Source: a phage. Taken from it: a stretch of DNA of 64,000 bases. Positions 1 to 62,002 of this stretch are shown here, in pieces (positions within the stretch are counted from its first letter, which is position 1; each line of letters begins with the position of its first letter). The translations under genes and the position numbers were made by a program. The DNA is taken from sequence record PZ402305.1; one strand, 5' to 3'. Under the pieces are notes generated by a model. It was not told the origin of the DNA, searched no databases, and saw only the letters and a list, made by a program, of their open reading frames with translations.

Positions 1-162
1 GTTGCCGCTATTGCTATTATTGGATCTTATTATGATACCCGTTTCCCGTCGGCTATGCATGAGGTCGCCGCCGTTGCATCAGTTGGCGTACTGTTTTACG
101 TTGGTAAACGCTATTTATCACCAATGATTAACAAGCTGACACCGTGGAAAAATAAAGGTTGA
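1..162 (+). CDS. 3' end of an upstream gene (partial), hydrophobic C-terminus
   Basis: Frame open from window edge to TGA at 160-162 (...VAAIAIIGSYYDTRF...LTPWKNKG). Confidence 0.3.
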   Translation, partial: VAAIAIIGSYYDTRFPSAMHEVAAVASVGVLFYVGKRYLSPMINKLTPWKNKG

Positions 163-214
163 TCCTGTTTTATATTGTGTTATAGTTATCGTGTAGGGCG
201 GCAATGGTGCCGCG
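159..214 (+). promoter_or_regulatory. PeSL-like cassette 1: TTGATC-N16-TATAGT promoter plus GTAGGGCGGCAATGGTGCCGC stem-loop
   Basis: -35/-10 hexamers with 16 nt spacer; hairpin GCGGCA/TGCCGC about 6 nt after -10; precedes ATG at 234. Confidence 0.55.
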
Positions 215-233
215 CCCCTTTGAGGATGCAATC

Positions 234-518
234 ATGAGTAAAGCTAACACCGTGCTAATGTTTTCCCTGATTAATGATCCCGCTTACTTGTCCAACATGA
301 CGCAGGAGGGTAACACATTAACGGCAACATTCACCAATAAGCTTGACCGAGTGATCATCATCTCACTGAAAACAGTTAGTAAAGGCTTTTACTCGTTAGC
401 TTATCATTGGATCACTGATACCGATGAGACAAGCCAGGACTATAGCGCCCCTTTCCCTGAATCAATGGCACGGGAGATCATCGCCGCCGTTGTAAATGAT
501 GGTTTGTTTACTGCATAA
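234..518 (+). CDS. hypothetical protein (94 aa)
   Basis: Track ORF 204..518 trimmed to internal ATG with GAGGA RBS; the track N-terminus lies inside the stem-loop. Confidence 0.5.
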   Translation: MSKANTVLMFSLINDPAYLSNMTQEGNTLTATFTNKLDRVIIISLKTVSKGFYSLAYHWITDTDETSQDYSAPFPESMAREIIAAVVNDGLFTA

Positions 519-533
519 AAATTTAGAAAAGGC

Positions 534-590
534 TTGCAATAATTTTGAGATAGTGTATATTTAATTCATAGGGCGGCGGGAATAGTTCCC
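534..590 (+). promoter_or_regulatory. PeSL-like cassette 2: TTGCAA-N16-TATATT plus TAGGGCGGCGGGAAtagTTCCC hairpin
   Basis: Same layout as cassette 1; precedes small ORF at 614. Confidence 0.45.
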
Positions 591-613
591 AAAGCAAACG
601 AGAGGATTACACG

Positions 614-733
614 ATGAGCAAGTACACAGTAGAATACACGGTAGAGAATCCGGCAGTATCCGAAGGTAAAAAGATGACATTTGCCATCAGTATAATCGCT
701 TTCGTTGTCACTATCTTATCAATCATCTTATAA
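614..733 (+). CDS. small membrane protein (39 aa)
   Basis: GAGAGGA RBS then ATG; single hydrophobic helix (FAISIIAFVVTILSIIL). Below track cutoff; coordinates read by eye. Confidence 0.4.
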   Translation: MSKYTVEYTVENPAVSEGKKMTFAISIIAFVVTILSIIL

Positions 734-743
734 GGTGCACACC

Positions 744-905
744 ATGAAAATAACAGACATTATCAAAGAGATCGCCCTTGCCGCTGGCGTTGAAGTCGAG
801 GAAGTGATCGCGCTCAATCTTACAGAAAACGATCTGCGCAACTATGAAGCGGAAAGCGTGAAAGCAAGCGGCGCGGTCCTGGTATATGATCCGGCTAACA
901 AGTAA
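744..905 (+). CDS. hypothetical protein (53 aa)
   Basis: Internal ATG of track ORF 705..905 preceded by AAGGTG. Confidence 0.4.
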   Translation: MKITDIIKEIALAAGVEVEEVIALNLTENDLRNYEAESVKASGAVLVYDPANK

Positions 906-1026
906 GGGGATAACATGAATCCGAAAGATATGCAAGCATGGAAAGGGTACGACGATCTAAGCGCCTTGCGCAATAAGTCAAGCCGTAACCTTAGACGGTT
1001 GGAAGCAAAGAAAAAGAAAAAATAGT

Positions 1027-1082
1027 TTGACAAGTCCGCGTAGTCTGATAATATGTATCTTGTAGGGCGGCAATGGTGCCGC
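1027..1082 (+). promoter_or_regulatory. PeSL-like cassette 3: TTGACA-N16-TAATAT plus GTAGGGCGGCAATGGTGCCGC
   Basis: Consensus hexamers; stem-loop identical to cassette 1; precedes ATG at 1104. Confidence 0.6.
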
Positions 1083-1103
1083 TCACAAGAAGAGAGAAAA
1101 ATC

Positions 1104-1388
1104 ATGAAAATTACAAAAAGCCTAACTAATTATGCAGCACGTCGCGGATTATGTTTAACCGTTGAAAACTTAGGGAAAGAAGACTTTTTGTGTTTTTGGG
1201 AGCTTGAAAATGATTGCGAGTGGATGTTTTCTTATTCTATCTGCGAAGATCAAAACGGTTGTTTGTTAACCTGGCGCGGTAATATCTATTTACCGGAAGA
1301 AATCAAAGAGGAACTACCAGGCACGATCATGACTGAGAAACAGCTTAAGGAAGTGATCAATTTTGTAGGGCAAAACATTAAAAAATAA
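1104..1388 (+). CDS. hypothetical protein (94 aa, Cys-rich)
   Basis: Track ORF 1053..1388 trimmed to ATG after purine-rich RBS. Confidence 0.5.
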   Translation: MKITKSLTNYAARRGLCLTVENLGKEDFLCFWELENDCEWMFSYSICEDQNGCLLTWRGNIYLPEEIKEELPGTIMTEKQLKEVINFVGQNIKK

Positions 1389-1389
1389 T

Positions 1390-1452
1390 TTGACAGTAGG
1401 CAAACAACGTAGTAAAGTTTATTACATAGAGCGGCGGAATGGTCCACCGCTC
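1390..1452 (+). promoter_or_regulatory. PeSL-like cassette 4: TTGACA-N17-TAAAGT plus GAGCGGCGG/CCACCGCTC hairpin
   Basis: Same promoter then stem-loop layout; precedes ATG at 1474. Confidence 0.5.
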
Positions 1453-1473
1453 ACAACAGAAGAGAAACAAATC

Positions 1474-1644
1474 ATGATCCCGACTATGTTTTATGTATCG
1501 CGCAAAGGTCACAATATTTTTTGGTCTGAAGATTTAAATGAAGCTATGACGTTTGCCCGTAATCGTGTTGCTATCGGTGGCGTTAACATCACCGTAACCG
1601 ATGAAAATGGCATTGAATACTATAACGGCGACGATGAAGAATAA
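1474..1644 (+). CDS. hypothetical protein (56 aa)
   Basis: Internal ATG of track ORF 1390..1644; the track N-terminus overlaps the promoter cassette. Confidence 0.45.
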   Translation: MIPTMFYVSRKGHNIFWSEDLNEAMTFARNRVAIGGVNITVTDENGIEYYNGDDEE

Positions 1645-1837
1645 TTAATGAGGCGGGGGGAGTATTCCCCGCCGTCAATATGGCGGGGCAATAAGGCAAC
1701 GCCCATTAATGAGGGTAAAATCATGTTAGAGAAAATTTTCACGGTTGCAGTGGTTGGCCTGGCGTTATCGGTTGGAGTGGTTGCAACTATGGCTAACATG
1801 ATCCTATCTTCCCACGGTATCGGTTAAGGTGAAACAA

Positions 1838-2053
1838 ATGATCACGAACAAAACAGGCAAAACGGAATTTTTACGCGGCTTACAAGTTGGTAAGCCTGAG
1901 ATCTGGCATTGCACGAAGTCCGCGCATAATGAAATGAAAGATTTCACCGCTACTTTACAACGTGTTAAAATATCTATTACACAGAAAAAAGCCTTGTTAG
2001 TAGTAGAAAACGAGATCCCACAAACTATTATTATTGTCGAGCGTACAGCATGA
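1838..2053 (+). CDS. hypothetical protein (71 aa)
   Basis: ATG 6 nt after AAGGTG; track start is an upstream GTG. Confidence 0.45.
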   Translation: MITNKTGKTEFLRGLQVGKPEIWHCTKSAHNEMKDFTATLQRVKISITQKKALLVVENEIPQTIIIVERTA

Positions 2054-2436
2054 AAACAGAAATCATTATTGAAATCATCAACGGCTATAAAGAAGCTTTT
2101 ATTTTTGCTGAATCAGCAAGGGATCATGAAGGTAATTTTATTGATAACTTAGACGATTATGATTTTTCTCCTAGCGCGGACGAACGGATCGCCCAGGATG
2201 TAACAGCCTTTATTAATGCTAATCTTGCCGCTATCTCTGAGGCAATGAGCGACGGCGCAACAGCCAACCAGATCGGGAATGATTTACATTTTACCCGTAA
2301 CAGTCACGGCGTAGGCTTTTGGGATCGCCCTGAAATATACACCACTAACACGGCGAACCGCCTAACCAATGCAGCTAAGTTTATGCCGAACGTGTCGGCT
2401 TACATTGGTGAAGATAATTTGATTTATATTGAATAA
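2050..2436 (+). CDS. hypothetical protein (128 aa)
   Basis: ATGA start/stop overlap with upstream gene (translational coupling). Confidence 0.5.
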   Translation: MKTEIIIEIINGYKEAFIFAESARDHEGNFIDNLDDYDFSPSADERIAQDVTAFINANLAAISEAMSDGATANQIGNDLHFTRNSHGVGFWDRPEIYTTNTANRLTNAAKFMPNVSAYIGEDNLIYIE

Positions 2437-2442
2437 AAAGTA

Positions 2443-2498
2443 TTGACACAGATCGCCAGTGTGCTAATATTTACCACGTAGGGCGGCAATGGTGCCGC
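2443..2498 (+). promoter_or_regulatory. PeSL-like cassette 5: TTGACA-N16-TAATAT plus GTAGGGCGGCAATGGTGCCGC
   Basis: Identical architecture to cassette 3; precedes ATG at 2520. Confidence 0.6.
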
Positions 2499-2519
2499 TC
2501 CCCGAAAAAGGTAAACATT

Positions 2520-2711
2520 ATGGAAACCATCTCCTACCTGGAATCGAATAACATGTTTTTTGCGCCCGTTGATGAAATCATCGAAGCATTAAACAACGAG
2601 GAAGGGATCAAAGGTTTATCTTATAGCCAACTTTTAGGAATGGTTGCAGCAAATGAAGAGCTTGCTTACTATGTTGAAAATTTTGATGAAGCTGTAATCT
2701 TTACAAAATAA
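2520..2711 (+). CDS. hypothetical protein (63 aa)
   Basis: Track ORF directly downstream of cassette 5. Confidence 0.5.
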   Translation: METISYLESNNMFFAPVDEIIEALNNEEGIKGLSYSQLLGMVAANEELAYYVENFDEAVIFTK

Positions 2712-2714
2712 TCC

Positions 2715-2771
2715 TTGATCTAATCTCTTAGATAACTTATATTTAATGCGTAGGGCGGCAATGGTGCCGCC
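2715..2771 (+). promoter_or_regulatory. PeSL-like cassette 6: TTGATC-N17-TATATT plus GTAGGGCGGCAATGGTGCCGCC
   Basis: Precedes ATG at 2790. Confidence 0.55.
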
Positions 2772-2789
2772 GATAATGAGGAAAGTAAA

Positions 2790-3089
2790 ATGGAAACTAT
2801 CGCTATTGTTACCGTAGAAAAACTGGTTGTTGGTGATGTATTCGCGTTAATGGTGCCTAACAGCAGCAAACTGGGCGCTTATGAAGTAATGGATCATAAA
2901 AATGAATCATTTGGCGACGGTTGCACAATGGCGGTAAAATCTTTAAAGGATGGAATCATCCGCCAGGCTAACTGGCACAAAGGGAATCAAGTCGGTTTAA
3001 TATCAGCTAATTTCTTGCCAGAAGAGCAAACGTTAGACCAACTATCAGGCGGTAAGACGTTAGCCGAGCTACTGGAAACAGCGATCTAA
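2790..3089 (+). CDS. hypothetical protein (99 aa)
   Basis: Track ORF downstream of cassette 6. Confidence 0.5.
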   Translation: METIAIVTVEKLVVGDVFALMVPNSSKLGAYEVMDHKNESFGDGCTMAVKSLKDGIIRQANWHKGNQVGLISANFLPEEQTLDQLSGGKTLAELLETAI

Positions 3090-3097
3090 TCAACAAA

Positions 3098-3113
3098 GGG
3101 GCGGCAACGCCCC
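3098..3113 (+). other. intercistronic RNA stem-loop with GNRA tetraloop (GGGGCG-GCAA-CGCCCC)
   Basis: Perfect 6-bp GC stem, no U-tract; a second similar hairpin (GGGCG-GTAA-CGCCC) sits at about 3383-3396. Confidence 0.4.
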
Positions 3114-3133
3114 ACATCAGAAAGGAAAAGATT

Positions 3134-3370
3134 ATGAGTATTGCAACAGTATTAAACGCCGTTAAAACCGCTGAATCATCCGGCTTGCATGTTGAGCTTA
3201 TAGATCAACCAGGTGGCGATCTCCTTGTCCAGGTTTACCCGCCGAAAGTAGGGGATGATCATTATTGGTGCTATTCTGATACGTTCGAACAAGTAGACAC
3301 GAAAGCGATCACGGCTTTTATTTTAAAAGCTATTGAAGAAAATAACTTTCATTATAACATCAATCAATAA
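3134..3370 (+). CDS. hypothetical protein (78 aa)
   Basis: Track ORF. Confidence 0.45.
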   Translation: MSIATVLNAVKTAESSGLHVELIDQPGGDLLVQVYPPKVGDDHYWCYSDTFEQVDTKAITAFILKAIEENNFHYNINQ

Positions 3371-3427
3371 ACTTTAAGCAGGGGGCGGTAACGCCCTATT
3401 AAACGCAATAGGAAGAGGATAGAAAGC

Positions 3428-3718
3428 ATGAAAAAGATGATCGCAGTAGTTGCCCTGGTTGTTGGTATTAACGCGCCTGTAATGGCTAATGATTTGCCTG
3501 AATCCATCGCGTTAACCGATATCAACGCGGTAAACCGGATCGGCGTTAATTATCGCCTATGCCTTGCCGCTAAAACTTTCCAGGACGGCACGACAGAATA
3601 CCACGGATTCGAGGGTGTCCGGTGCGGTGAGCTTGCACGCGACCTTAAGGAAGATCCAGACCTTGAGGCCATACCGATGACCGTAAACGGTAAAGCTTAC
3701 GTAAACCGCCAACAATGA
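3428..3718 (+). CDS. hypothetical secreted protein (signal peptide)
   Basis: N-terminus MKKMIAVVALVVGINAPVMA resembles a Sec signal peptide. Confidence 0.5.
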   Translation: MKKMIAVVALVVGINAPVMANDLPESIALTDINAVNRIGVNYRLCLAAKTFQDGTTEYHGFEGVRCGELARDLKEDPDLEAIPMTVNGKAYVNRQQ

Positions 3719-3729
3719 GAAAGGTAATC

Positions 3730-3957
3730 ATGACAATGGGGATCATAGTAGCAACGCTGGCGCTGATCCCCTTCCTGGTTGAATATGTGCTGATTAGTGT
3801 TGTCCTGGTAGTCAGTGACTTATTGGAAACGGTTGGCACCTGGGAGCAGGGGAAGATAATCACCGGACGACCCCGCTATATATTGATAGCTAACATCTAT
3901 CAAACAACAAAACATCAAAGAGATAAACTATCAAATCTTTACAATCCTACCTATTGA
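3730..3957 (+). CDS. hypothetical membrane protein (75 aa)
   Basis: Internal ATG after GAAAGG RBS; two hydrophobic segments. Confidence 0.45.
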   Translation: MTMGIIVATLALIPFLVEYVLISVVLVVSDLLETVGTWEQGKIITGRPRYILIANIYQTTKHQRDKLSNLYNPTY

Positions 3958-4012
3958 CACCGGATCACGCTTACATTATCATTTATCACGTAGGGCGGGA
4001 ATGTTTCCCGCC
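3954..4012 (+). promoter_or_regulatory. PeSL-like cassette 7: TTGACA-N16-TTATCA plus GTAGGGCGGGAAtgtTTCCCGCC
   Basis: Precedes ATG at 4031. Confidence 0.5.
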
Positions 4013-4030
4013 TGATTTAGGAGTCATATC

Positions 4031-4264
4031 ATGATCGAACAAATTAAAAGCACTAAACCAAATGTTAACGGTAATGTTTCTCACTTTATCGGGGATAATG
4101 AAAGAGGTACACCGTACGCCGCCGTAACCGTTCAACCGAACGGGGATTATTGGTTTACCGTGTACGGATCTTACTCTTTTGGACGTTCGGCACATGATAA
4201 GATCTTGCAAGTGGTTAAGCCTACTGGGAAGAATATCACAGCAGAAAAATTTTATAAAAAATAA
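4031..4264 (+). CDS. hypothetical protein (77 aa)
   Basis: Track ORF. Confidence 0.5.
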   Translation: MIEQIKSTKPNVNGNVSHFIGDNERGTPYAAVTVQPNGDYWFTVYGSYSFGRSAHDKILQVVKPTGKNITAEKFYKK

Positions 4265-4265
4265 C

Positions 4266-4325
4266 TTGCTTTATAGCTCCTGTTAACTTATAGTTATTGC
4301 GTAGGGCGAGCAATACAGCAAGCCC
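4266..4325 (+). promoter_or_regulatory. PeSL-like cassette 8: TTGCTT-N17-TATAGT plus GTAGGGCG leader
   Basis: -35 region reads TTGCTTTA (MotA-box-like); conserved GTAGGGCG follows -10; precedes ATG at 4343. Confidence 0.45.
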
Positions 4326-4342
4326 ACAAAGAGGAAAAGAAG

Positions 4343-4711
4343 ATGAGCAAATCAGCAATTAAAGCACTTGAAAAAGCACAAGAAGTGATCGCAACGTCAA
4401 CCACTGGCGCAAAGGTTAATCTCGTTGGTTATCTGACAGATGAAACTATCCGTAAAAATTGGCGTAATGCTGATTTACTGGCTTGCTTATTGATTAATAG
4501 TGTCGCTAATGCTTTCCAGTGTGAAACAGCCGAGAGCCTGGAGGAAAACTTGTTTGATAATATGGATCAAGCCATTGAAACCTATATACAATCAAACATG
4601 GATAGCTGGAACAGTAAAACATGGCCCGACAATTTACGCGATACAACTGATCAACTGATCCGCCTTGCCTTGATGGTTGAACGCGATAACGTTCACAACC
4701 GCACAAAGTAA
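4343..4711 (+). CDS. hypothetical protein (122 aa)
   Basis: Track ORF with AAGAGGAAAAG RBS. Confidence 0.5.
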   Translation: MSKSAIKALEKAQEVIATSTTGAKVNLVGYLTDETIRKNWRNADLLACLLINSVANAFQCETAESLEENLFDNMDQAIETYIQSNMDSWNSKTWPDNLRDTTDQLIRLALMVERDNVHNRTK

Positions 4712-4721
4712 GATTATACAA

Positions 4722-4748
4722 GGGGCGCACCAAGCGCCCTTTCTTTTT
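4722..4748 (+). terminator. rho-independent terminator
   Basis: GGGCGC-accaa-GCGCCC stem-loop followed by TTTCTTTTT. Confidence 0.7.
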
Positions 4749-4749
4749 G

Positions 4750-6360
4750 CCCGAATAATGTTGATAGATTCCGCCTATGGAAAACCGACACAGAACAAAA
4801 CTGAATAAATAGCGGTATCGAGCTAATCAACCATTAAACGAATAACCATACCTCCCAGGGTAACAGGCTGTTAGAGAGCCATTTAGAGCGGTTAAAATCG
4901 ATCAACAACCAACAAAAAACCATCAAAAACACCCTTTTACCTCCTTTCTAGTGCAATGATAACCATTATCATCTATCCATGTTTATCTATGCAATATAAG
5001 TGCATAACTATAATGTTGATAATAGTTCGCAACAACTAACTAACCAACAACCTAAAACAATAAGCAAACTAATCATAATCAAAGGAATAATAGCAAGATG
5101 ATTGATAACGACAAACAATCAAACCATGATGAATACTAAGCAAGATAACGATAACACGACAAAACAACCAACTAACGAACAATAACAAACGAAACCATTA
5201 AAATAATAACTATTAGCAAAATAGTGCCTGAATGAAATCATTACAAAACGAATCATTCACAGGATCATCATTAGCACGCTATGCCGGACACATAGCGAGC
5301 TAATAATAAGCCAACTACACCCCAACAATCATAACCATCGGTGATGGTTATTTCTTGTTACTGCGTAGCTTGCAATAATTGCAAGCGTAATACGCTTACA
5401 CTTATTGCGCTGGCTTATTATTAGCATTATATGTAATTACCAAGATCATAACATTAGCGCAATAACAATAATCATTGTGGTAATTACAAGATGAAATAAT
5501 CGCTATCGCTCAAAGATCATTAGCAAGATGAATAATTGCACGTAGCAACATGAGCGAATAGCGACAGGTTGCATAGTGTGCACATAGATGTACACGTAGT
5601 GTATAAACATACAGGAAAATAAAGGCTAATCTTTTGGGGGCGAATACTATCGCGTAGCGATATGTTGAGCACTAAGAGAAGAGATAAACCTTAATCATGG
5701 GGGCGTAAATATCCGCAGGATTGCCAACGGCGATCCGGTAGGATGTTGAGCATCTTCTCTTAAACGTAAATAAAATCAGAAAATTCTTGATTTATTTTAG
5801 TTTTTATGTTAATAAACGTTTAAATAATAATCATTCTCATATGAATAATAGTCTGCTTGTCATGAGCGGGATCAGTTGACAATGTTCCGTCATATGATGA
5901 AGTTGCCAAACCATTGATAAATAAGTGTTTGTGTGATTTATAATCAAGTGGCCCACCTTGTCGCTATGTTGGCATGAGCCTTGCATAAGTCATTGAATAC
6001 GAATGATAATTATTCTCATTCGCATGATATTTGAGAATTGTCGCTGCGTGGACCTGACGGCCCGAAAATTCGCGTTAAGCACTTCTTACGTATGCGCCAT
6101 GATTTTTGCCATATGATATTGATTCTATTAGATATTCTTGCCATGATTGCCATGAAACAGGGTGTCCCGAAATAATCTCTCCCCGTAGATATTTTGGGTT
6201 ACTTTTTATACAAGAGTGGGGTGTCAAAAATAATCGGTATATATGGGATAATTGATAGGAATCCCCTATGATAATTCGATTGTAATTCCCTGAGATTGAT
6301 CGTATGATGTTGGTGATTGATGATTGCCATGAAAGATGGCTAACAATGAGAGGAGATTAT
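4750..6360. other. 1.6 kb ORF-free, repeat-bearing non-coding region
   Basis: No ORF of 60 aa or more on either strand; C+A-rich top strand at 4750-5550; short direct and inverted repeats at 5600-6340. Confidence 0.5.
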
Positions 6361-6361
6361 C

Positions 6362-6706
6362 ATGCAAGAGAGTAAAAATGTTCCGTTGAGTAGTTTACGT
6401 CTAATGAAGTTTTACAAAGCTTGGCTTGCTGGTGAGGTAGAAGGTCACACAACGAGTGGTTTGTGCATATGTTTGATTAAGTATGTAGAGGGAACATATC
6501 CTGATGAACTGTTACCTCGTCTACAACAGGAGATGAAATCACAGTTTATTGGTGCAGGACTGGATTACAATTTCCCGTTTAATGAAGGTGGTTATGAGGA
6601 ATACACCTTCGAACATAAAAAACATATTTGCCATAAAAACAAACATCGTATACAATGGGTGCTAGATAGAATTCAAGATTACGAAGGAGAGAAAAATGAC
6701 AAATAG
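6362..6706 (+). CDS. small Cys-containing protein, paralogous family member 1
   Basis: GAGGAG RBS; shares FYKAWL..GLCxCL..AGLDYNxPFN..RxQWVxDRI motifs with five other ORFs. Confidence 0.6.
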   Translation: MQESKNVPLSSLRLMKFYKAWLAGEVEGHTTSGLCICLIKYVEGTYPDELLPRLQQEMKSQFIGAGLDYNFPFNEGGYEEYTFEHKKHICHKNKHRIQWVLDRIQDYEGEKNDK

Positions 6707-7064
6707 TATTCCGTTGAGCAGTGCAACATTGCTTCGCTTCTATAAAGCATGGATTGCCAACTATCCTGCAATGAATCGCACAACGAGTGGCTTATGTGGT
6801 TGTCTGGTAGATTATGTAAATGATTTTGTTGGTGAGACAACCAGAGAAGAAGATAGAAGATGGCGGGATAGTTTGTTGGACCGTTTGAAATATGAAATGA
6901 GGAAACAATTTACATGTGCAGGGCTGGACTACAATCTTCCGTTCAATACAGATTGCATGGATTACCTTTCAGAGTGTATAAACTTGGCGTGTCATACCAA
7001 CACGTTACGTCTTCAATGGGTGAAAGACAGAATTGAAGATGCAAATAATGCTTGCATTGAATAA
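6696..7064 (+). CDS. small Cys-containing protein, paralogous family member 2
   Basis: Tandem to member 1; LLRFYKAWI, SGLCGCL, AGLDYNLPFN, LQWVKDRIED. Confidence 0.6.
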   Translation: MTNSIPLSSATLLRFYKAWIANYPAMNRTTSGLCGCLVDYVNDFVGETTREEDRRWRDSLLDRLKYEMRKQFTCAGLDYNLPFNTDCMDYLSECINLACHTNTLRLQWVKDRIEDANNACIE

Positions 7065-7795
7065 AGATGTTTGTATAATGGATGACATAACAGATAGCCA
7101 ATGAGGAGATTGAAATGTCAAATATGAAAACTGTATCCTTGTATTTAGCTAACACGGATCGTGTGCACACCCTTGCTAATGCAAGTCGTGTACTCGTGCA
7201 GTTCCGAAACTTTGCACCGTCCGTTGTGACAGGCAGTGAAACGTGTGTTATCGATTTCATTAACGAATACTTCCGAGGGAATCCGGTTGGTCGTTATTTC
7301 ATTAAGGGTCTGAAGGATGCATAATATGAAACGCATGAAAATTCGTATTGAGAATGATGGTGGTTATAAAGGATTGGCACATGCAAAATTTCCACTTGTG
7401 CTGGAAGCTACGGTGGAATACAGTGGGCTTGCTCATGTGCGATTCTCGAAGATGATGGAAGTGCAGGAATGGTTTTGGGACGAGATAGATGCACGAGAAG
7501 GGGAAGATTATGTTTTCTTTCCTCACGAATATGAAATTGTTTATTAAAGGTTGTGTGCAATGATCACACCACAACAGAATGAAGCAGCAATGGATCTTCT
7601 TGACAGTTTGTATTTCGATAATTGGTACTCTGAATGTGAATGGATGAATATGCAAACTCTGAAAGAGAAGACAAAAGCGTTGATTACAGTAGATCAATTT
7701 CTTACAGAGACGGAAAGAATGAATTATGATATGGCATCTCGCGCACGACGCGTTTCCATTTTCAATAAAATGTTAGCATTATGGGGAGGTAGAAA

Positions 7796-8257
7796 ATGAG
7801 ACAACCATCTATACTGGAAGCGCATGTGCAATGTGTTGTAGATTATGTCAAAGAACACTCAAGTTTGTTGAATGTAACCTGTGCAGTGCAAAACGATGTA
7901 GGTATTGTCTGTGTGCAACATATCTTATCTGAAACTCGTTATGAAGTATTTCGTGCCACGTTGTTTGGATGTGATCGAGTGCATGTAAACTTCCTGGACT
8001 CCAATTATCGTTATGCTTTAGAAAATATTGATGATTATCTTCCTTGCTCTCCGACAGGATATGTAATGGTAACAGCAAACGAAGTAACACCGAGCAACAG
8101 TGAACAGGAAGCTTTGTTACGGAAGAAAATACGCCAACTGCAAGTGTTGAATGAACTGAAAGAAGAGATTGAAAAAGAACTAAAAGAAGATTTTGGTATG
8201 CTTCCAAAAGACGCTTTGAAATGGTATGATGAGTTAGGAGGAGAGAACAATGTTTAA
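7796..8257 (+). CDS. hypothetical protein (153 aa)
   Basis: Track ORF, ATGA overlap with upstream gene. Confidence 0.45.
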   Translation: MRQPSILEAHVQCVVDYVKEHSSLLNVTCAVQNDVGIVCVQHILSETRYEVFRATLFGCDRVHVNFLDSNYRYALENIDDYLPCSPTGYVMVTANEVTPSNSEQEALLRKKIRQLQVLNELKEEIEKELKEDFGMLPKDALKWYDELGGENNV

Positions 8258-8708
8258 AGAAGGTCATGTCTACCGTTTCCAGGATGAGGATTATATGCGA
8301 TTATATTCTACCTTTGATAACAGTATTGCTGCTATCATTGGAGAGAATTTTTTCGAGGTGTTGAGCACTGATGCAAATGGTAATATCTTGTCAATGGTTG
8401 TGATAGGTATGAGAGATGGTATTATCACTGCTAGTGATGGGGATCGTTACATAATCAATTCTGCTCATATAGATTATTTTGTTGACGGTGGTATTCGTGG
8501 TGGTCGTGGAAAACCACAAGAAGAACCTGTTGATACAACAAAAGAAGAGTGGTATGTTGTAATGACTGATGACACCTGTATTTCTGGATTTGAAAGTTAT
8601 GAAGAAGCTTTGAAAGAGGCAGCAGAGCATAAAATGTCTAATCCTACAGAAGAGGTTGAAGTTTATAAACGTTTGGTTGTTGCTACCATCGGCGTATCTT
8701 TTGTTTAA
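8250..8708 (+). CDS. hypothetical protein (152 aa)
   Basis: GGAGGAG RBS. Confidence 0.5.
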   Translation: MFKEGHVYRFQDEDYMRLYSTFDNSIAAIIGENFFEVLSTDANGNILSMVVIGMRDGIITASDGDRYIINSAHIDYFVDGGIRGGRGKPQEEPVDTTKEEWYVVMTDDTCISGFESYEEALKEAAEHKMSNPTEEVEVYKRLVVATIGVSFV

Positions 8709-8721
8709 AAAGGGGAATGTT

Positions 8722-9159
8722 ATGTTTAAAGTTAATGCTGTTTATTGTTTCAAAAGTAAAGCTGCCTGTGAAGCTTTCTCTATGATCTCTGATGAAAATT
8801 TCAAAATGGCAGCTTTGATTGAAGGGTCTTGTTTCCGCGTCGAGGATGTTAGTGAATCAGGGTCTGTTTGCTCATTGACTTTATTGGACAGCGGGGATAT
8901 TATTGAAGCTGGACAGTATCCGTTCAGGAGTTGGGAGATATTGTTAGCTCGCGGAGAGCGTAACTTTTTTATGTGCGTGTCTGCGGGGGAAGTTGTGAAA
9001 GAAACTAAGGATGTTTCTGTTTACAATTCTGAATTTATAAGTTATAGTGAGTATCAACATCTGGAAGGCATTGTTGGTCACTTGTTATCTCTGATTGACA
9101 TTGAATGTGACCTGCCTGAATCATTGAAAGAAGAGTTGAAAGCATTAGATCTGCTGTAA
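8722..9159 (+). CDS. hypothetical protein (145 aa)
   Basis: Internal ATG after AAGGGGAA RBS. Confidence 0.45.
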   Translation: MFKVNAVYCFKSKAACEAFSMISDENFKMAALIEGSCFRVEDVSESGSVCSLTLLDSGDIIEAGQYPFRSWEILLARGERNFFMCVSAGEVVKETKDVSVYNSEFISYSEYQHLEGIVGHLLSLIDIECDLPESLKEELKALDLL

Positions 9160-9482
9160 TGTTTCGCACAACGAAAGGAGAATAAGATGAATCTGACCGA
9201 ACAGTTACGCCGTATTGCAAAAGAAGCTTCCTTCAACTTCCCTGTTGAAGAAGTGATCGAGACATGTTTTGCTGAAGCACGAGCGGGAAACTCTTCAAGA
9301 AATTTCACGCCATCTGATTTTGGTCTGAATAATTCTCCCACCCACCCAGAGCAGATCTACAATCAGGTGAAGTGGATGGATGAAGCAGTAGCAATTCTTC
9401 GTGAGCGTGGGCTTATTGTTTATAAAGAAATGGATCTGAACGGGGCATACGAGTGGATCACTATTGATTGGTCCGAGGTGAA

Positions 9483-9719
9483 ATGATGAAAGGTAACAAG
9501 ATGAAAGTTAATCAAGTGCCGAGCGCATACACTTTGTGGCTTGCGCGAGCGTTACACCAGACGATCAAAGACCCTAAGAAGCCAATGAAGAGTGGGAAGA
9601 AGTTTATGTCTAAGGGCAAAACAACCTTTGGCTTCACTCGTATGTCTATCAAGATGAAAAGGCTGGGGTACAAGCCAAACTACGCTCGTTACCCTTCTGA
9701 ATACAACTGGTTTGACTAA
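9483..9719 (+). CDS. small basic protein (78 aa)
   Basis: ATGA-coupled start; Lys/Arg-rich. Confidence 0.4.
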   Translation: MMKGNKMKVNQVPSAYTLWLARALHQTIKDPKKPMKSGKKFMSKGKTTFGFTRMSIKMKRLGYKPNYARYPSEYNWFD

Positions 9720-10211
9720 AGAGGAGAACAAAACATGAAAACATCTATTCGCGTAAAACATGATCCAAACAGCAGTTACCCATACGCGGATGTTGAACGT
9801 CACGAAGGAGACTATTACACCATAAAACGTAAAGTCCCAACTGATACAGGGTTTAACTTTGATGTTATTGCGCTGGATGATCAAGGTGTTGATAATCTGG
9901 TGAATGCATTACTCGCATTGAAGGAAGTACGATATGAAAATCAGACTAAAGGTAAAGTGGCTTTCGATTCTTGTGATCGTTTAGCCGAAGAGATTGCCGA
10001 ATGGCGCGACACTCACTAAAACAGGAGAAAGACTATGGCTACTTTTCAACAATTGAAAGATGTTTCACGTTTAGTAAGAAAAATCCGAGAAGCAGACGCT
10101 GCTGTGCGGAATGCACTAACGCCAGCAGAGCGTGAAGATCTTGAAGAGGAGGTGAAAACAGCCGAGAATGCTTTTGCTGTGTATCTTTCAACCCTGTACA
10201 CAGGAGGTTAA

Positions 10212-10526
10212 ATGTCAGAAGAACTTAAAGAATTTTATCAAGCATATCATAACTGGCTGTTAGCTGGTGCTCCAGATAATAATCCTTTCTGGCATGATAA
10301 AGGATTATGTAGTTGCCTCTACCTTTGGACTGGAGGTTATGATGATCTAAATTATGAAATGCAAATGCAATTCCGTGAGGCAGGATTGTCTGAAGAATAC
10401 CCGTTTGATGACGGAGACTGGTTTAAATATGATTTTGCACAAAGAAACGGGCTATTGCATTTGAATGCTGCCCGTATAAAATGGGTAAAAGACCATGCTA
10501 CACAGGAGGATGTGCAATGCCAATAG
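10212..10526 (+). CDS. small Cys-containing protein, paralogous family member 3
   Basis: FYQAYHNWLL, KGLCSCL, AGLSEEYPF, RIKWVKDH. Confidence 0.55.
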   Translation: MSEELKEFYQAYHNWLLAGAPDNNPFWHDKGLCSCLYLWTGGYDDLNYEMQMQFREAGLSEEYPFDDGDWFKYDFAQRNGLLHLNAARIKWVKDHATQEDVQCQ

Positions 10527-14089: not shown

Positions 14090-15979
14090 TGGCTGCTTAT
14101 AATTGGTATGAACTTGAAGCTGTTTGTCAGTTTTATGACTCAATAGTTCTGCGTGATCCAATCTGTCAAGAATTGAGTCGCCGTGCAAGTGCATTGGCAA
14201 TCCGTGTTAAAATAAACGGTTGGAACGCAGATTTGGAAAAAGAGTTGGAATTTCTCTTAGAAAACACGCGGGTCTTCCGCAAAGTGTTCCCTGAATGGTT
14301 TGAGATGGAAGAATGATCATGTGGATTGTGCGTCTTAAGTATGATGGCCCTAATCCTTGGGTGAGAACAGTTTGCGGATGTGATACTAAAGAGTCAGCAG
14401 ATAAAGCTGGAAGAATGATAAGTGCCTTTTATAATAGTAAACCTCTTTGTTTAGAAATGTCTGGTGTGGTTTGTATGAGCATGTTCGAATACTACTCTTA
14501 TGAGATCAAAGAACACCAAGGGGAATGGAAATAAATAGTTGACAGAAGGATCTGTCTTTGTCATAATCATCTCATCGAAACAAAGAGGAGAAAATCATGA
14601 AAAAGTTTATTTGCACCCGTTCCACTAACAGTGATATCCTTGTAGGTAAGGTTATCAAAGGAGAACTCTTCCATGCAAACGGTAAGAAATATATTTTGCT
14701 GAAAGATTCTTTCAACGGGGAATATCCGCGCTGCACTTTCTTCAATTACAACACTCCATTTGCTTTAGAAGGAGATGCTTGGGACTGGGCTGAACTCAAT
14801 CCTTGTTGTGAGGAAGAAGAATCTATGTTCTTGGGTTTAAACGTTTACCGTGTAGATTACACCATGTGCGGAGCGGAACATTCTGTTCGCGTAGAAGCCG
14901 AATCCAAACTACAAGCACCTTTCAAGGCGGGATTGACTTTGGGTCATTGTTTGGCAAACATTGAAGATGTTGTGATCCAAAGGGTTGTTTTAGAGAAAGA
15001 GGCTATTTGAGAGAAGACGGCACAATATTTAAATATAAAGATTAACCACAAAGGAGATAGATATGCAAGTTGAAGACCTGATCAAAATTTTGAATGAAGC
15101 CAAAGAGAAAGGTGCTATCAAAGACTGGAAACGTGAAACAAGTGAAGATCTATCTCACTGTTGCCGAGAATTTTACATCGAAGGTATTGCTGACGATCAT
15201 TATATTATCGAATGGTATATCAACTTAATGACTCTTAAGCACGGTTCGTTTGAGGTTTGGTTTGATGACATTGATGTAAATGGTTTTCATCCTGGCTATA
15301 AAATCGCTATGCAGTTATCTTATCGTAGAGAAGTTGTAGCACATTTAGGTTTACATAACTAAGGAGAAAAGAATGCAAGCAGTTGTTAACGAAGCTATTA
15401 TGAACTTATCCTTCTTGTTAGCTGGTTTAGGAGGTGTTCTCATAGGTTTGGCTCTTATCTGGTGTATTCGTCGATTAATCGGGTACCGACAAAAAGGTGT
15501 TTCATGTTTTGTATCTTACAATTTTACAACTGCTTACAGCAATGAAGTTGGATCTGGCAATGCTCAAGCATTTTTACCAACATATCCTCCTACGGTGGAA
15601 GATATTCGAAACTTGGAAGTAGAACTTATGGGACTAAGTGATAACTATACATCTCTAGTTATTCAAAATATTTTTCGACTAAAACAGGAGGCGTGAATGA
15701 AGGTACATTACCCTCATCCATTTGATCCTAAAAACAAAGCCGTAATTCTTCGTCAGTGGCAACGGGTTTGTCGTACTAAATGTCCAATCAATAGCCCACA
15801 CAATGTAGACAAGGACTATCTTGGGACATTTGTTGAATACACTTACATAGACAAAAACAAGCGTAAACAACATGTCGAGGAATACTGCTTAAGAGTAGAA
15901 TGGCTGTAAATAATAAATACCTTGACAAGTGTTTATTCGTTTTGTAAAGTGAGAATACAGCAATGGTTTAGGAGTGGTT

Positions 15980-17059: not shown

Positions 17060-17425
17060 ATGACAATCGATTTGAAGTGTAAGAGGATTCTTTTAGATTT
17101 CTATAATAATTGGTTAGAACACCTCCGGCTCTTTCCAAGAGAAAGTGGTTACGCTGATGTTGGCTTATGCCGAGGTCTACGTATGTATATAAGTGATGAA
17201 TTTCGGGCCGAGCATTCTTTAGCATATTCTGTTTATGGTATGCAATTAGCCAGTTTTGAAAACGCTGGCTTAGATACAACTTTCCCATTTAACACAGCAA
17301 AATCTTTTGAGCAAGAGTGTAAGGAAAAACGTTGCATGTTTAATGAAAAACGTGTACAGTGGGTTAAGGATCGAGTTAAACAACTGGAACAAGAGTTGGA
17401 TTTCTTCTATGATGAGGCAGAATAA
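17060..17425 (+). CDS. small Cys-containing protein, paralogous family member 5
   Basis: Internal ATG after GAAGGAG; LLDFYNNWL, VGLCRGL, AGLDTTFPFN, RVQWVKDRV. Confidence 0.5.
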   Translation: MTIDLKCKRILLDFYNNWLEHLRLFPRESGYADVGLCRGLRMYISDEFRAEHSLAYSVYGMQLASFENAGLDTTFPFNTAKSFEQECKEKRCMFNEKRVQWVKDRVKQLEQELDFFYDEAE

Positions 17426-17701: not shown

Positions 17702-18313
17702 ATGATTCAATGCACTCATATCCAAATTACTTGGAGAGATGAACTTTACCATTTGGGACAATTTACTGTAGGGGAAACATACCCTGTCATTAAACATAAT
17801 CCTAACATCGCAAACTTTGATAGGATGGTTCTTGTTGAGGACGATCTGGGTCAAACTTATTCTTTAGATCTAAAATATCCGTTTTCTTACGGCTACGATT
17901 GGATCGTTACTTTTGAAGACGTGGAGGAAAATAAAACAATGAACGAAAAAAATTCTTGGTATTATCGTTGTGAACTGCCGCCAGTAGGTGAAAAGGTTAT
18001 CTTTGTTCCTGATTTGGAAAGATATTCTTGGGACAGTTCTTATTCTGTTCCTAAAGAAGGCACCGAAGTTGAAGTTATTGCACATCGCACGACTTCGCAT
18101 GGTAACGATGTAGCAGTTGTTTTCTGGGATGATGAAGGCGCTGCTTGTGCAGGTGGCTTTGTTGCAGGTAACTTTGAACCCCTGCCAGATCCTTTGAAGG
18201 AGGCAATTTTAGGCGTAGCTTCTTTTGGACTCTCTTACACGTCTGCACAGGAGATCGTAGAAGGTATTTTAAACGGTACTGTTCCAAACGAAATTTTCAA
18301 ACAGATTAAATAA
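17702..18313 (+). CDS. hypothetical protein (203 aa)
   Basis: Track ORF with RBS. Confidence 0.5.
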   Translation: MIQCTHIQITWRDELYHLGQFTVGETYPVIKHNPNIANFDRMVLVEDDLGQTYSLDLKYPFSYGYDWIVTFEDVEENKTMNEKNSWYYRCELPPVGEKVIFVPDLERYSWDSSYSVPKEGTEVEVIAHRTTSHGNDVAVVFWDDEGAACAGGFVAGNFEPLPDPLKEAILGVASFGLSYTSAQEIVEGILNGTVPNEIFKQIK

Positions 18314-61604: not shown

Positions 61605-61931
61605 GAGTGGGAGCACCAACACAACATTAAGGGCACTGTGATTGATCGTCGTATCCTGTGCACAAGGTCTGTTCGAAAGACAGTGTTCTTAGTATTGTGT
61701 TGATCACAAAAAGAGTCACCTGAAACTTGACCGGAGTAGGGTTGGATGGGGTAAAAGAAGAAGCGGCTCTCCCATCGACAGCAACGAAGAATAATATTTG
61801 ACTTTGGTTTTGTATTATTTTAAGTTAGCTTACCGAACGTAGGGCTAGTCACCCAAAGGGATACTCGTCACTGTCCCACTCAATAAAACTATTGACAACC
61901 AATAGTAAAGTGTAGTATAGTAAAGATGTAG

Positions 61932-62002
61932 GGCGTTCTTGGTGTAGCGGTAGCATTCCGTCCTTCCAAGTCGGCGGCACGAGTTCGATCCTCGTAGAAC
62001 GC
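61932..62002 (+). tRNA. tRNA-Gly (TCC)
   Basis: Acceptor GCGTTCT/AGAACGC, loop CTTCCAA, T-arm ACGAG-TTCGATC-CTCGT; D-arm weak. Confidence 0.55.

Follow-up and report, generated by a model that had tools for sequence, protein, structure and literature searches.

We analysed an array of small genes at the start of a 64,000-nucleotide (nt) stretch of phage DNA from sequence record PZ402305.1 (the window). Positions 1-4752 carry a row of small plus-strand open reading frames (ORFs), closed by a canonical terminator at 4720-4752 and interrupted by a repeated cassette in which promoter-like hexamers are followed by a GC-rich hairpin. An original prediction from the sequence had placed eight promoter and stem-loop cassettes here, and all eight were located where it put them, between 159 and 4327. 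After the -35 hexamer and a spacer of 16-17 nt comes a -10 hexamer of the form TAnnnT and, 6-7 nt past it, a box of the form R-TAG(G/A)GCG. In every cassette the box is then followed, in this order, by a GC-rich inverted repeat, an A-rich leader and an ATG. As predicted, the 21-mer GTAGGGCGGCAATGGTGCCGC occurs exactly four times; GTAGGGCG occurs seven times in the window against 0.47 expected, and none of 100 shuffles reached seven. The features are listed below, each cassette from the first base of its -35 hexamer and each first gene from its ATG.

159-216, plus strand: cassette 1; -35 TTGATC (159-164), -10 TATAGT (181-186), box GTAGGGCGG (193), hairpin 196-216; gene 234-518
534-595, plus strand: cassette 2; -35 TTGCAA, -10 TATATT, box ATAGGGCGG (568)
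614-733, 744-905 and 915-1025, plus strand: genes of cassette 2
1027-1086, plus strand: cassette 3; TTGACA-N16-TAATAT, box at 1062, exact GTAGGGCGGCAATGGTGCCGC at 1062-1082, hairpin 1062-1086; gene 1104-1388
1390-1452, plus strand: cassette 4; TTGACA-N17-TAAAGT, box ATAGAGCGG (1426); gene 1474-1644
1652-1705, plus strand: two promoterless GC hairpins, 1652-1673 and about 1679-1705
2443-2500, plus strand: cassette 5; TTGACA-N16-TAATAT, box at 2478, exact 21-mer at 2478-2498, hairpin 2481-2500; gene 2520-2711
2715-2771, plus strand: cassette 6; TTGATC-N17-TATATT, box at 2750, exact 21-mer at 2750-2770, hairpin 2754-2771
2790-3089, 3134-3370, 3428-3718 and 3730-3957, plus strand: genes of cassette 6
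3098-3113, plus strand: promoterless hairpin GGGGCGGCAACGCCCC, between two genes
3382-3397, plus strand: promoterless hairpin GGGGCGGTAACGCCCT
3954-4013, plus strand: cassette 7; TTGACA-N17-TATCAT (11/12 matches), box at 3990, hairpin 3993-4013; gene 4031-4264
4266-4327, plus strand: cassette 8; weak -35 TTGCTT, -10 TATAGT, box GTAGGGCGA (4301), hairpin 4301-4327 (z -4.9); gene 4343-4711
4720-4752, plus strand: canonical intrinsic terminator closing the array, GGGGCGCACCAAGCGCCC then TTTCTTTTT
61892-61935, plus strand: promoter of tRNA-Gly; TTGACA-N18-TATAGT, then aaagatGTAGG, then the tRNA 5' end GCG

Several details of the prediction had to be revised. The cassettes had been called near-identical; when aligned they do share an invariant TTG, TA and TAGnGCG, but nothing else is invariant and mean column identity is 62%. 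Their genes are indeed small, but the cassettes do not front one gene each, because the eight of them head 16 ORFs and cassettes 2, 4 and 6 lead groups of three to four. The distance to the start codon, given as 20-40 nt, is 40-48 nt when measured from the box and 15-23 nt from the end of the hairpin. The hairpin of cassette 2 is degenerate (core 578-590, -7.8 kcal/mol) and that of cassette 4 (1429-1452) reaches -15.9 kcal/mol (z -4.4).

The phage is not T4-type: window positions 1-4800 are 95-97% identical to genomes of Phapecoctavirus, the phAPEC8-like Escherichia coli myoviruses of the Stephanstirmvirinae, and the closest match is phage dw-ec (about 97%, at 144812-150433 of its record). Nor is the array one of eight. 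About 25 cassettes make up an array near one genome end, and the window holds its last eight; the others lie upstream of window position 1. In phage Schickermooser (MK373788), about 25 cassettes lie on the plus strand in the roughly 11 kb before the genome end (about 137.8-149.0 kb), and neighbouring cassettes are usually one small gene apart. Outside the array, a genome-wide promoter check found only one convincing copy. Judged by sequence comparison, the array is a feature of the lineage of Phapecoctavirus and its relatives: a like cassette design is present in phi92 (Justusliebigvirus), FV3 (Vequintavirus), Citrobacter phage Tr1 and Klebsiella phage phi1_175008, and a distant blastn search with one 85-nt cassette matched 148 phage records, nearly all in the Phapecoctavirus, phi92-like and rV5-like groups. 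When ten array proteins were compared with the PHROGs database, nine matched, eight of them to families of no known function and one to a membrane protein; the tenth was without a match.

Predicted promoters and 5' hairpins of the cassettes

Each cassette is predicted to contain a promoter of the host sigma-70 type. Seven of the eight were recovered by an independent consensus scan, most copies across the array read TTGACA-N16/17-TAnnnT, and only three of six -35 positions match the consensus in cassette 8. The 20 nt upstream of the -35 are 65-95% A+T, compared with 58% for the whole region. A pyrimidine followed by a purine is the usual context of a transcription start, and all eight window cassettes have a pyrimidine just before the box purine, which lies 7-8 nt past the -10. 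Transcription most likely starts at this purine, so that the predicted RNA begins R-U-A and enters the stem after three unpaired nucleotides. We infer that these transcripts are made early. In the literature on Phapecoctavirus, rV5-like phages and Vequintavirinae, we found no description of the cassette and no mapping of transcript starts.

The box had also been reported to recur before tRNA-Gly. This occurrence of GTAGGGCG, at 61928, is composed of a 5-nt GTAGG leader and the GCG that forms the first three bases of tRNA-Gly; what it shares with the cassettes is the promoter and start context, to which the tRNA acceptor stem is joined. The site has the start-site context of a cassette without being one. 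As an observation in its own right, the tRNA-Gly unit and the cassettes are alike in plan (promoter, short leader, structured RNA), the former having a strong sigma-70-like promoter, the cassette-like GTAGG context and a structured RNA 5 nt past the predicted start.

The hairpin occupies a fixed place relative to this predicted start. Measured in 58 cassettes, the stem mostly begins 10-11 nt past the -10 hexamer, at about +4 of the predicted transcript, and folding of the eight predicted leaders gave a 5'-proximal hairpin (nt 4-25) in all of them. The region of the Shine-Dalgarno (SD) sequence and the ATG is unpaired in most of these leaders, with a small second leader hairpin added in the minimum-energy folds of cassettes 1, 5 and 7. 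Six of the eight leaders folded better than shuffled controls (z -1.9 to -4.9). The combination of promoter and hairpin is a property of the array: 17 of 21 strong promoter-like sites within it have a structure of -11 kcal/mol or lower in the first 30 nt or so, whereas only 6 of 107 do elsewhere in the genome (Fisher 8e-13), where strong sigma-70-like promoters occur without a hairpin.

What follows the stem does not look like a terminator. Among 55 hairpins, the 8 nt after the stem contain a mean of 1.0 T and at most three, and the tail is 60% A. A terminator scan of the plus strand called only 4720-4742 terminator-like and none of the cassette hairpins; hairpins with a T-run are found at the end of the array and at a few internal points.

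The arms of the stem co-vary. Counting only sequences anchored as GCGG-X...Y-CCGC, we found X/Y to be G/C in 29 cases and C/G in 14, with no case of G/G; of seven exceptions, six have a bulged C together with an inner helix and the other has a single mutation. Eight of nine stem positions have at least two pair types and arms swapped between cassettes are fully complementary in only 23%, although the loop-anchored pair table is structure-guided and partly circular, and is used for description only. The loops vary freely (TAG, TGT, CAC, AAC, ATGG, GTGGT), and in phi92, FV3, Tr1 and the Klebsiella phage quite different stems stand at this position (GGGGCG/CGCCCC, GGGGCAA/TTGCCCC and GGCGCA/TGCGCC); GGGGAG/CTCCCC is a further unrelated stem found there in other phages. 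An internal G.U pair is common (GGGCGG opposite CCGCTC), with A-U taking its place in other copies (GAGCGG), a pairing available only in plus-strand RNA. With 38 cassette cores aligned by MAFFT, RNAalifold returned no consensus structure, since the cores vary in the length of loop and stem. Searches with Rfam 15 covariance models found only tRNAs at gathering score in the whole window and nothing at E<=1 in positions 1-5000. A boxA-like motif after the hairpin (GCTCACAACA compared with GCTCTTTAACA) was considered and dropped, as its sequence is not conserved among cassettes. Taken together, the fixed position, the non-U tail, the co-variation and the variable loops and stems point to a transcribed RNA structure that is probably selected for its structure at a fixed distance from the start.

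Recombination junctions within the cassettes

The original prediction regarded the cassettes as recombination hotspots and proposed comparing cassette-bounded gene content between related phages. We set window positions 1-4800 against 11 Phapecoctavirus genomes and inspected the sequence at the junctions. Whole modules proved to be absent from relatives with their junctions in hairpins, in agreement with the hotspot idea: 12 of 18 distinct junction ends fall inside hairpins, which make up 6.4% of the region (binomial p=6e-11). The six ends outside hairpins are at 905, 3819/3843, 544, 702, 2051 and 3789.

Several of these events left a hybrid cassette. Phage nieznany is without 1083-2749 (1.67 kb), and its crossover in cassette 3 produced a hybrid that joins the promoter of cassette 3, the common 21-mer and the leader of cassette 6. 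The segment 2532-2735, comprising the cassette 5 gene and cassette 6, is absent in phAPEC8, ESCO25, Ro121c4 and ukendt, where a cassette 5/6 hybrid is left. The cassette 7 module (3998-4290) is absent in phAPEC8, Ro121c4, nepoznato and anhysbys, the crossover lying within CGTAGGGCG of cassettes 7 and 8 and giving a 7/8 hybrid.

Hairpins without a promoter also act as junctions. A 265-bp module (3114-3378) is absent in ZCKP1, ukendt and anhysbys, with the crossover within two promoterless hairpins, that at 3098-3113 forming the left junction and that at 3382-3397 the right. The hairpin at about 1679-1705 is what remains of a cassette that Schickermooser and dw-ec retain in full, and about 1652-1705 is an insertion hot spot, with variable inserts of 75-482 bp in relatives. 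The terminator hairpin 4720-4742 is duplicated in relatives around an extra 420-nt gene and so serves as a recombination junction too. In phi92, homologous genes stand in another order.

These comparisons support the view that related phages have gained, lost and swapped small genes by recombining within the repeated cassette. Since the junctions include promoterless and terminator hairpins, we would favour short homology, template switching provoked by hairpins, or both, over a box-specific recombinase.

Two further observations concern rearrangement in this region. A second indel hot spot, at 3819-3843, is not a hairpin but a 25-nt stretch in ORF 3730-3957, which in most relatives is present twice, on either side of insertions of 46-591 bp. 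In the 159-kb record of WPEC2 (PV691511), array pieces of 80-160 bp are repeated many times on both strands, which may be a genuine scrambling of modules flanked by cassettes or an artefact of assembly.

Proposed mechanism and alternative readings

The sequences themselves show how the cassettes are built, that they are confined to the array, that the hairpin arms co-vary, that terminator features are lacking and where recombination took place. We propose a model in which a host sigma-70 promoter, a non-terminating, stabilizing 5' hairpin and a recombining gene module form one unit. As a whole we consider this model somewhat probable; its promoter call and its shuffling step draw on direct sequence evidence. 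In each unit, an A/T-rich stretch would lie upstream of a promoter of the host sigma-70 type (TTGACA-N16/17-TAnnnT), from which host RNA polymerase would most likely start at the purine of Y|R-TAGGGCGG. The resulting mRNA would have about three unpaired nucleotides at its 5' end, then a GC-rich hairpin of 7-9 bp, and then an A-rich, unstructured leader of 15-23 nt with a Shine-Dalgarno sequence, and this open leader would allow efficient translation. In the DNA, short homologies would come from the repeated core, with up to 21 identical bp, and from the related hairpins, whether promoterless or part of a terminator; at these points, recombination or template switching would delete, insert and reshuffle promoter-hairpin-gene modules between phages.

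The hairpin itself would not terminate transcription and, as a 5'-terminal stem-loop, would most likely protect the transcript from RppH and RNase E, whose attack depends on the 5' end. This role, mRNA 5'-end protection, is suggested by anatomy and general knowledge. RNA reading through from upstream promoters could acquire the same protection, if cleavage in the AU-rich promoter RNA placed the hairpin at a new 5' end. In T4, Srd activates RNase E, an activity that would motivate 5' protection. The rV5 paper reports a homologue of T4 Srd; in the window, a PHROGs scan of ten ORFs at 6362-10526 gave only families of unknown function. In E. coli, 5' secondary structure stabilizes mRNAs, since both RppH and RNase E require a single-stranded 5' end (PMC3997798). 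The RppH of Bacillus subtilis needs at least two unpaired 5' nucleotides and prefers at least three.

Several points weigh against this model. The leaders of cassettes 1 and 2 fold no better than shuffled controls, and the co-variation counts draw on paralogous copies that are not independent and, in part, on a structure-guided alignment. RTAGGGCGG and the GCGG/CCGC core are conserved beyond what a purely structural role requires, which may point to a sequence-specific reader or have no other cause than common descent and gene conversion. The hairpin also occurs without a promoter between genes (3098-3113 and 3382-3397), and therefore has, or had, a role independent of a primary 5' end. Three unpaired 5' nucleotides may still permit some RppH action, the one available figure being that for the B. 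subtilis enzyme. For the Phapecoctavirus group, the literature turned up no data on transcript 5' ends, timing or half-life.

Existing annotations disagree on what the element is. In the phAPEC8 record, box and hairpin together carry the label 'putative promoter determined with PHIRE', and a 'host dependent promoter' is entered for the sigma-70 part; in the ASO2A record, the hairpins appear as 'rho-independent terminators' just after promoters; and most GenBank records leave the element unannotated. In the sense of the ASO2A label and of a strict promoter early stem-loop (PeSL), the hairpin would terminate or attenuate transcription coming from the upstream cassette, giving a compound terminator-promoter that insulates neighbours. 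The hairpins are GC-rich and intergenic and promoterless copies exist, as this would have it, and a PeSL stem-loop from RB49/phi1 cut lacZ expression like a strong terminator (PMC2839356). However, the hairpin lies downstream of the promoter, so that the cassette's own transcripts would stop as well; none of the 55 hairpins has four or more T in the next 8 nt, their tails being 60% A; the array closes with a canonical hairpin and T-run (4720-4752); and the scan called no cassette site. We rejected an intrinsic terminator for want of a U-tract, given the A-rich tail and the single plus-strand call at 4720-4742, and regard the insulating version as unlikely. The PHIRE annotation leads instead to a phage-specific promoter, in which the conserved 20-mer is read by a phage-encoded or phage-modified polymerase, and TAGGG does superficially resemble T7-type initiation sequences. 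Yet every copy of the 20-mer sits 6-7 nt past a good sigma-70 -10 that has a -35 to match, the two halves of the 20-mer co-vary as those of a hairpin do, about 130 kb of Schickermooser annotation that we examined contain no RNA polymerase gene, and PHIRE reports only over-represented words. This reading was rejected as very improbable. The position at about +4, the missing U-tract, the co-varying arms and an SD/ATG region left open in most of the eight leaders are the reasons for preferring a leader hairpin to both.

Alternatively, box and hairpin could be the recognition element of a phage regulator, acting either on RNA (an early-mRNA binding protein, a nuclease or an antiterminator of the lambda N/boxB type) or on DNA (a repressor at +1 to +25 that silences all array promoters). 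Such a regulator would account for the conservation of RTAGGGCGG and the GCGG/CCGC core in Phapecoctavirus, in phi92-like phages and in some rV5-like ones, for the confinement of the element to one transcription block and for its location where operators and nut-like sites sit. Against this stand the free variation of loop sequence and length and the wholly different stems at the same place; the variable arm spacing speaks against a rigid dimeric DNA binder, the G.U pairs speak against a DNA palindrome, Rfam gave no match and no candidate protein was identified. We hold such a regulator to be improbable. A bolder version, which we treat as speculative and rather doubtful, makes the box and hairpin the address label of a dedicated system: a phage factor would recognize all array transcripts or promoters, switching them off jointly or sparing them while host mRNA is destroyed, or else the hairpin would direct recombination by a logic like that of integron attC, actively capturing and exchanging modules between co-infecting phages. 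Fur-box-like repeats seen in phi92 are not part of the cassette, as the window has none at up to three mismatches. In phi92 itself (NC_023693), four sites match GATAATGATAATCATTATC at up to three mismatches against 0.02 expected; they lie at 6758-6829, 17209-17227 and 18090-18108, in non-coding DNA on both sides of the cassette array.

The original prediction had matched the cassettes to PeSLs, which were described in RB49/phi1, T4/PST and KVP40/nt-1 (Arbiol 2010, PMC2839356; Comeau 2014, PMC4122927). PeSLs have sigma-70 promoters with an A/T-rich upstream region, stand before ORFans in hyperplastic regions and at indel junctions, and can give rise to mini-circles, excised circular molecules with one chimeric element each; gene gain, loss and replacement at element junctions between close relatives is the essence of the concept (PMC2839356, PMC4122927). 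Their stem-loops lie between or over the -35 and -10, upstream of the -35 or just before the start, in five subclasses, and the one tested lowered lacZ expression as much as a strong terminator (PMC2839356). The match holds in part. Both elements combine a strong sigma-70-type promoter, an A/T-rich upstream region and a GC-rich stem-loop; both occur in dozens of copies before ORFans in a hyperplastic block; and in both the indel and replacement junctions between close relatives fall in the repeated element. The cassettes differ in their phage type, an unrelated Stephanstirmvirinae/Vequintavirinae lineage; in a hairpin fixed inside the transcript (about +4 to +25) rather than within or before the promoter; in having no terminator signature; and in a conserved start-site box, RTAGGGCGG. 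The proposal that the stem-loop is a 5' leader structure rather than a terminator thus fits this locus, where it starts at about +4 and no U-tract follows, but departs from the definition of a PeSL. The cassette acts like a PeSL at the DNA level without being a strict member, and is unlikely to have the terminator activity of one.

At the RNA level, the cassette hairpin resembles 5' stabilizers of the ompA type. The T7 gene 10 leader has such a stabilizing 5' hairpin. So do the E. coli ompA and papA leaders, 5'-terminal stem-loops that stabilize mRNA (cited in PMC3997798). In all of these, as in the cassettes, a stable hairpin a few nucleotides from the (here predicted) 5' end precedes an open ribosome-binding region, and the structure is kept while the sequence varies. 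Unlike ompA-type stabilizers, the cassette hairpin belongs to a repeated, mobile promoter unit present about 25 times per genome; its three unpaired nucleotides, if transcription starts at the box purine, are at the upper edge of the protective range, and its stabilizing effect is a prediction from anatomy. With intrinsic terminators the cassettes share a GC-rich intergenic hairpin, but theirs has no U-tract, an A-rich tail and a position downstream of its own promoter, and true T-run terminators occur separately in the array. The lambda nut and rrn boxB-boxA sites of early operons likewise place a small hairpin in the promoter-proximal transcript, whereas the cassettes have no conserved loop or boxA-like sequence. 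In addition, for lambda nut, no N-like protein was identified for the cassettes, and their hairpin stands before nearly every gene rather than once per operon.

The cassette is best described as a variant of promoter/stem-loop shuffling units in the phAPEC8/phi92/rV5 group. A single reading, as a sigma-70 promoter with a transcribed 5' hairpin, would correct the annotation of about 150 phage records, in which the element is now a PHIRE promoter, a terminator or nothing at all. PeSL-style shuffling would then not be a T4-like peculiarity but would also be found in the unrelated rV5/phi92/phAPEC8 group, whose phages are in wide use for phage therapy. In these phages, cassette borders are natural and already-tested places at which to insert or delete genes, and the promoter, hairpin and A-rich leader together are a compact expression unit and a potential part for synthetic biology. 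The proposed role of the hairpin makes a directly testable prediction about mRNA stability early in infection.

Surroundings of the array and a remote cassette

Directly after the last array terminator, positions 4750-6360 form a stretch of about 1.6 kb without ORFs that is AT-rich (GC 0.33-0.38) and contains inverted repeats at 5290-5313/5411-5434 and 5432-5449/5471-5488. In phi92, the block homologous to the array is followed by an annotated right terminal repeat. Because the ORF-free stretch is the counterpart of the 'non-coding' box of rV5 and of the phi92 stretch that ends in this repeat, it probably holds the genome terminus or packaging region. A tight gene block follows the non-coding region, with three paralogous small ORFs (6362-6706, 6696-7064 and 10212-10526) that match phrog_2510, a family of unknown function.

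The single cassette outside the array was seen in Schickermooser (MK373788), on the minus strand at about 14590-14650, where TTGACA-N16-TAAGAT is followed by ...CATGAAGCGGGGAATAGTTCCCCGC. It fronts a gene for a TerC-like membrane protein within a tellurite-resistance-like cluster.

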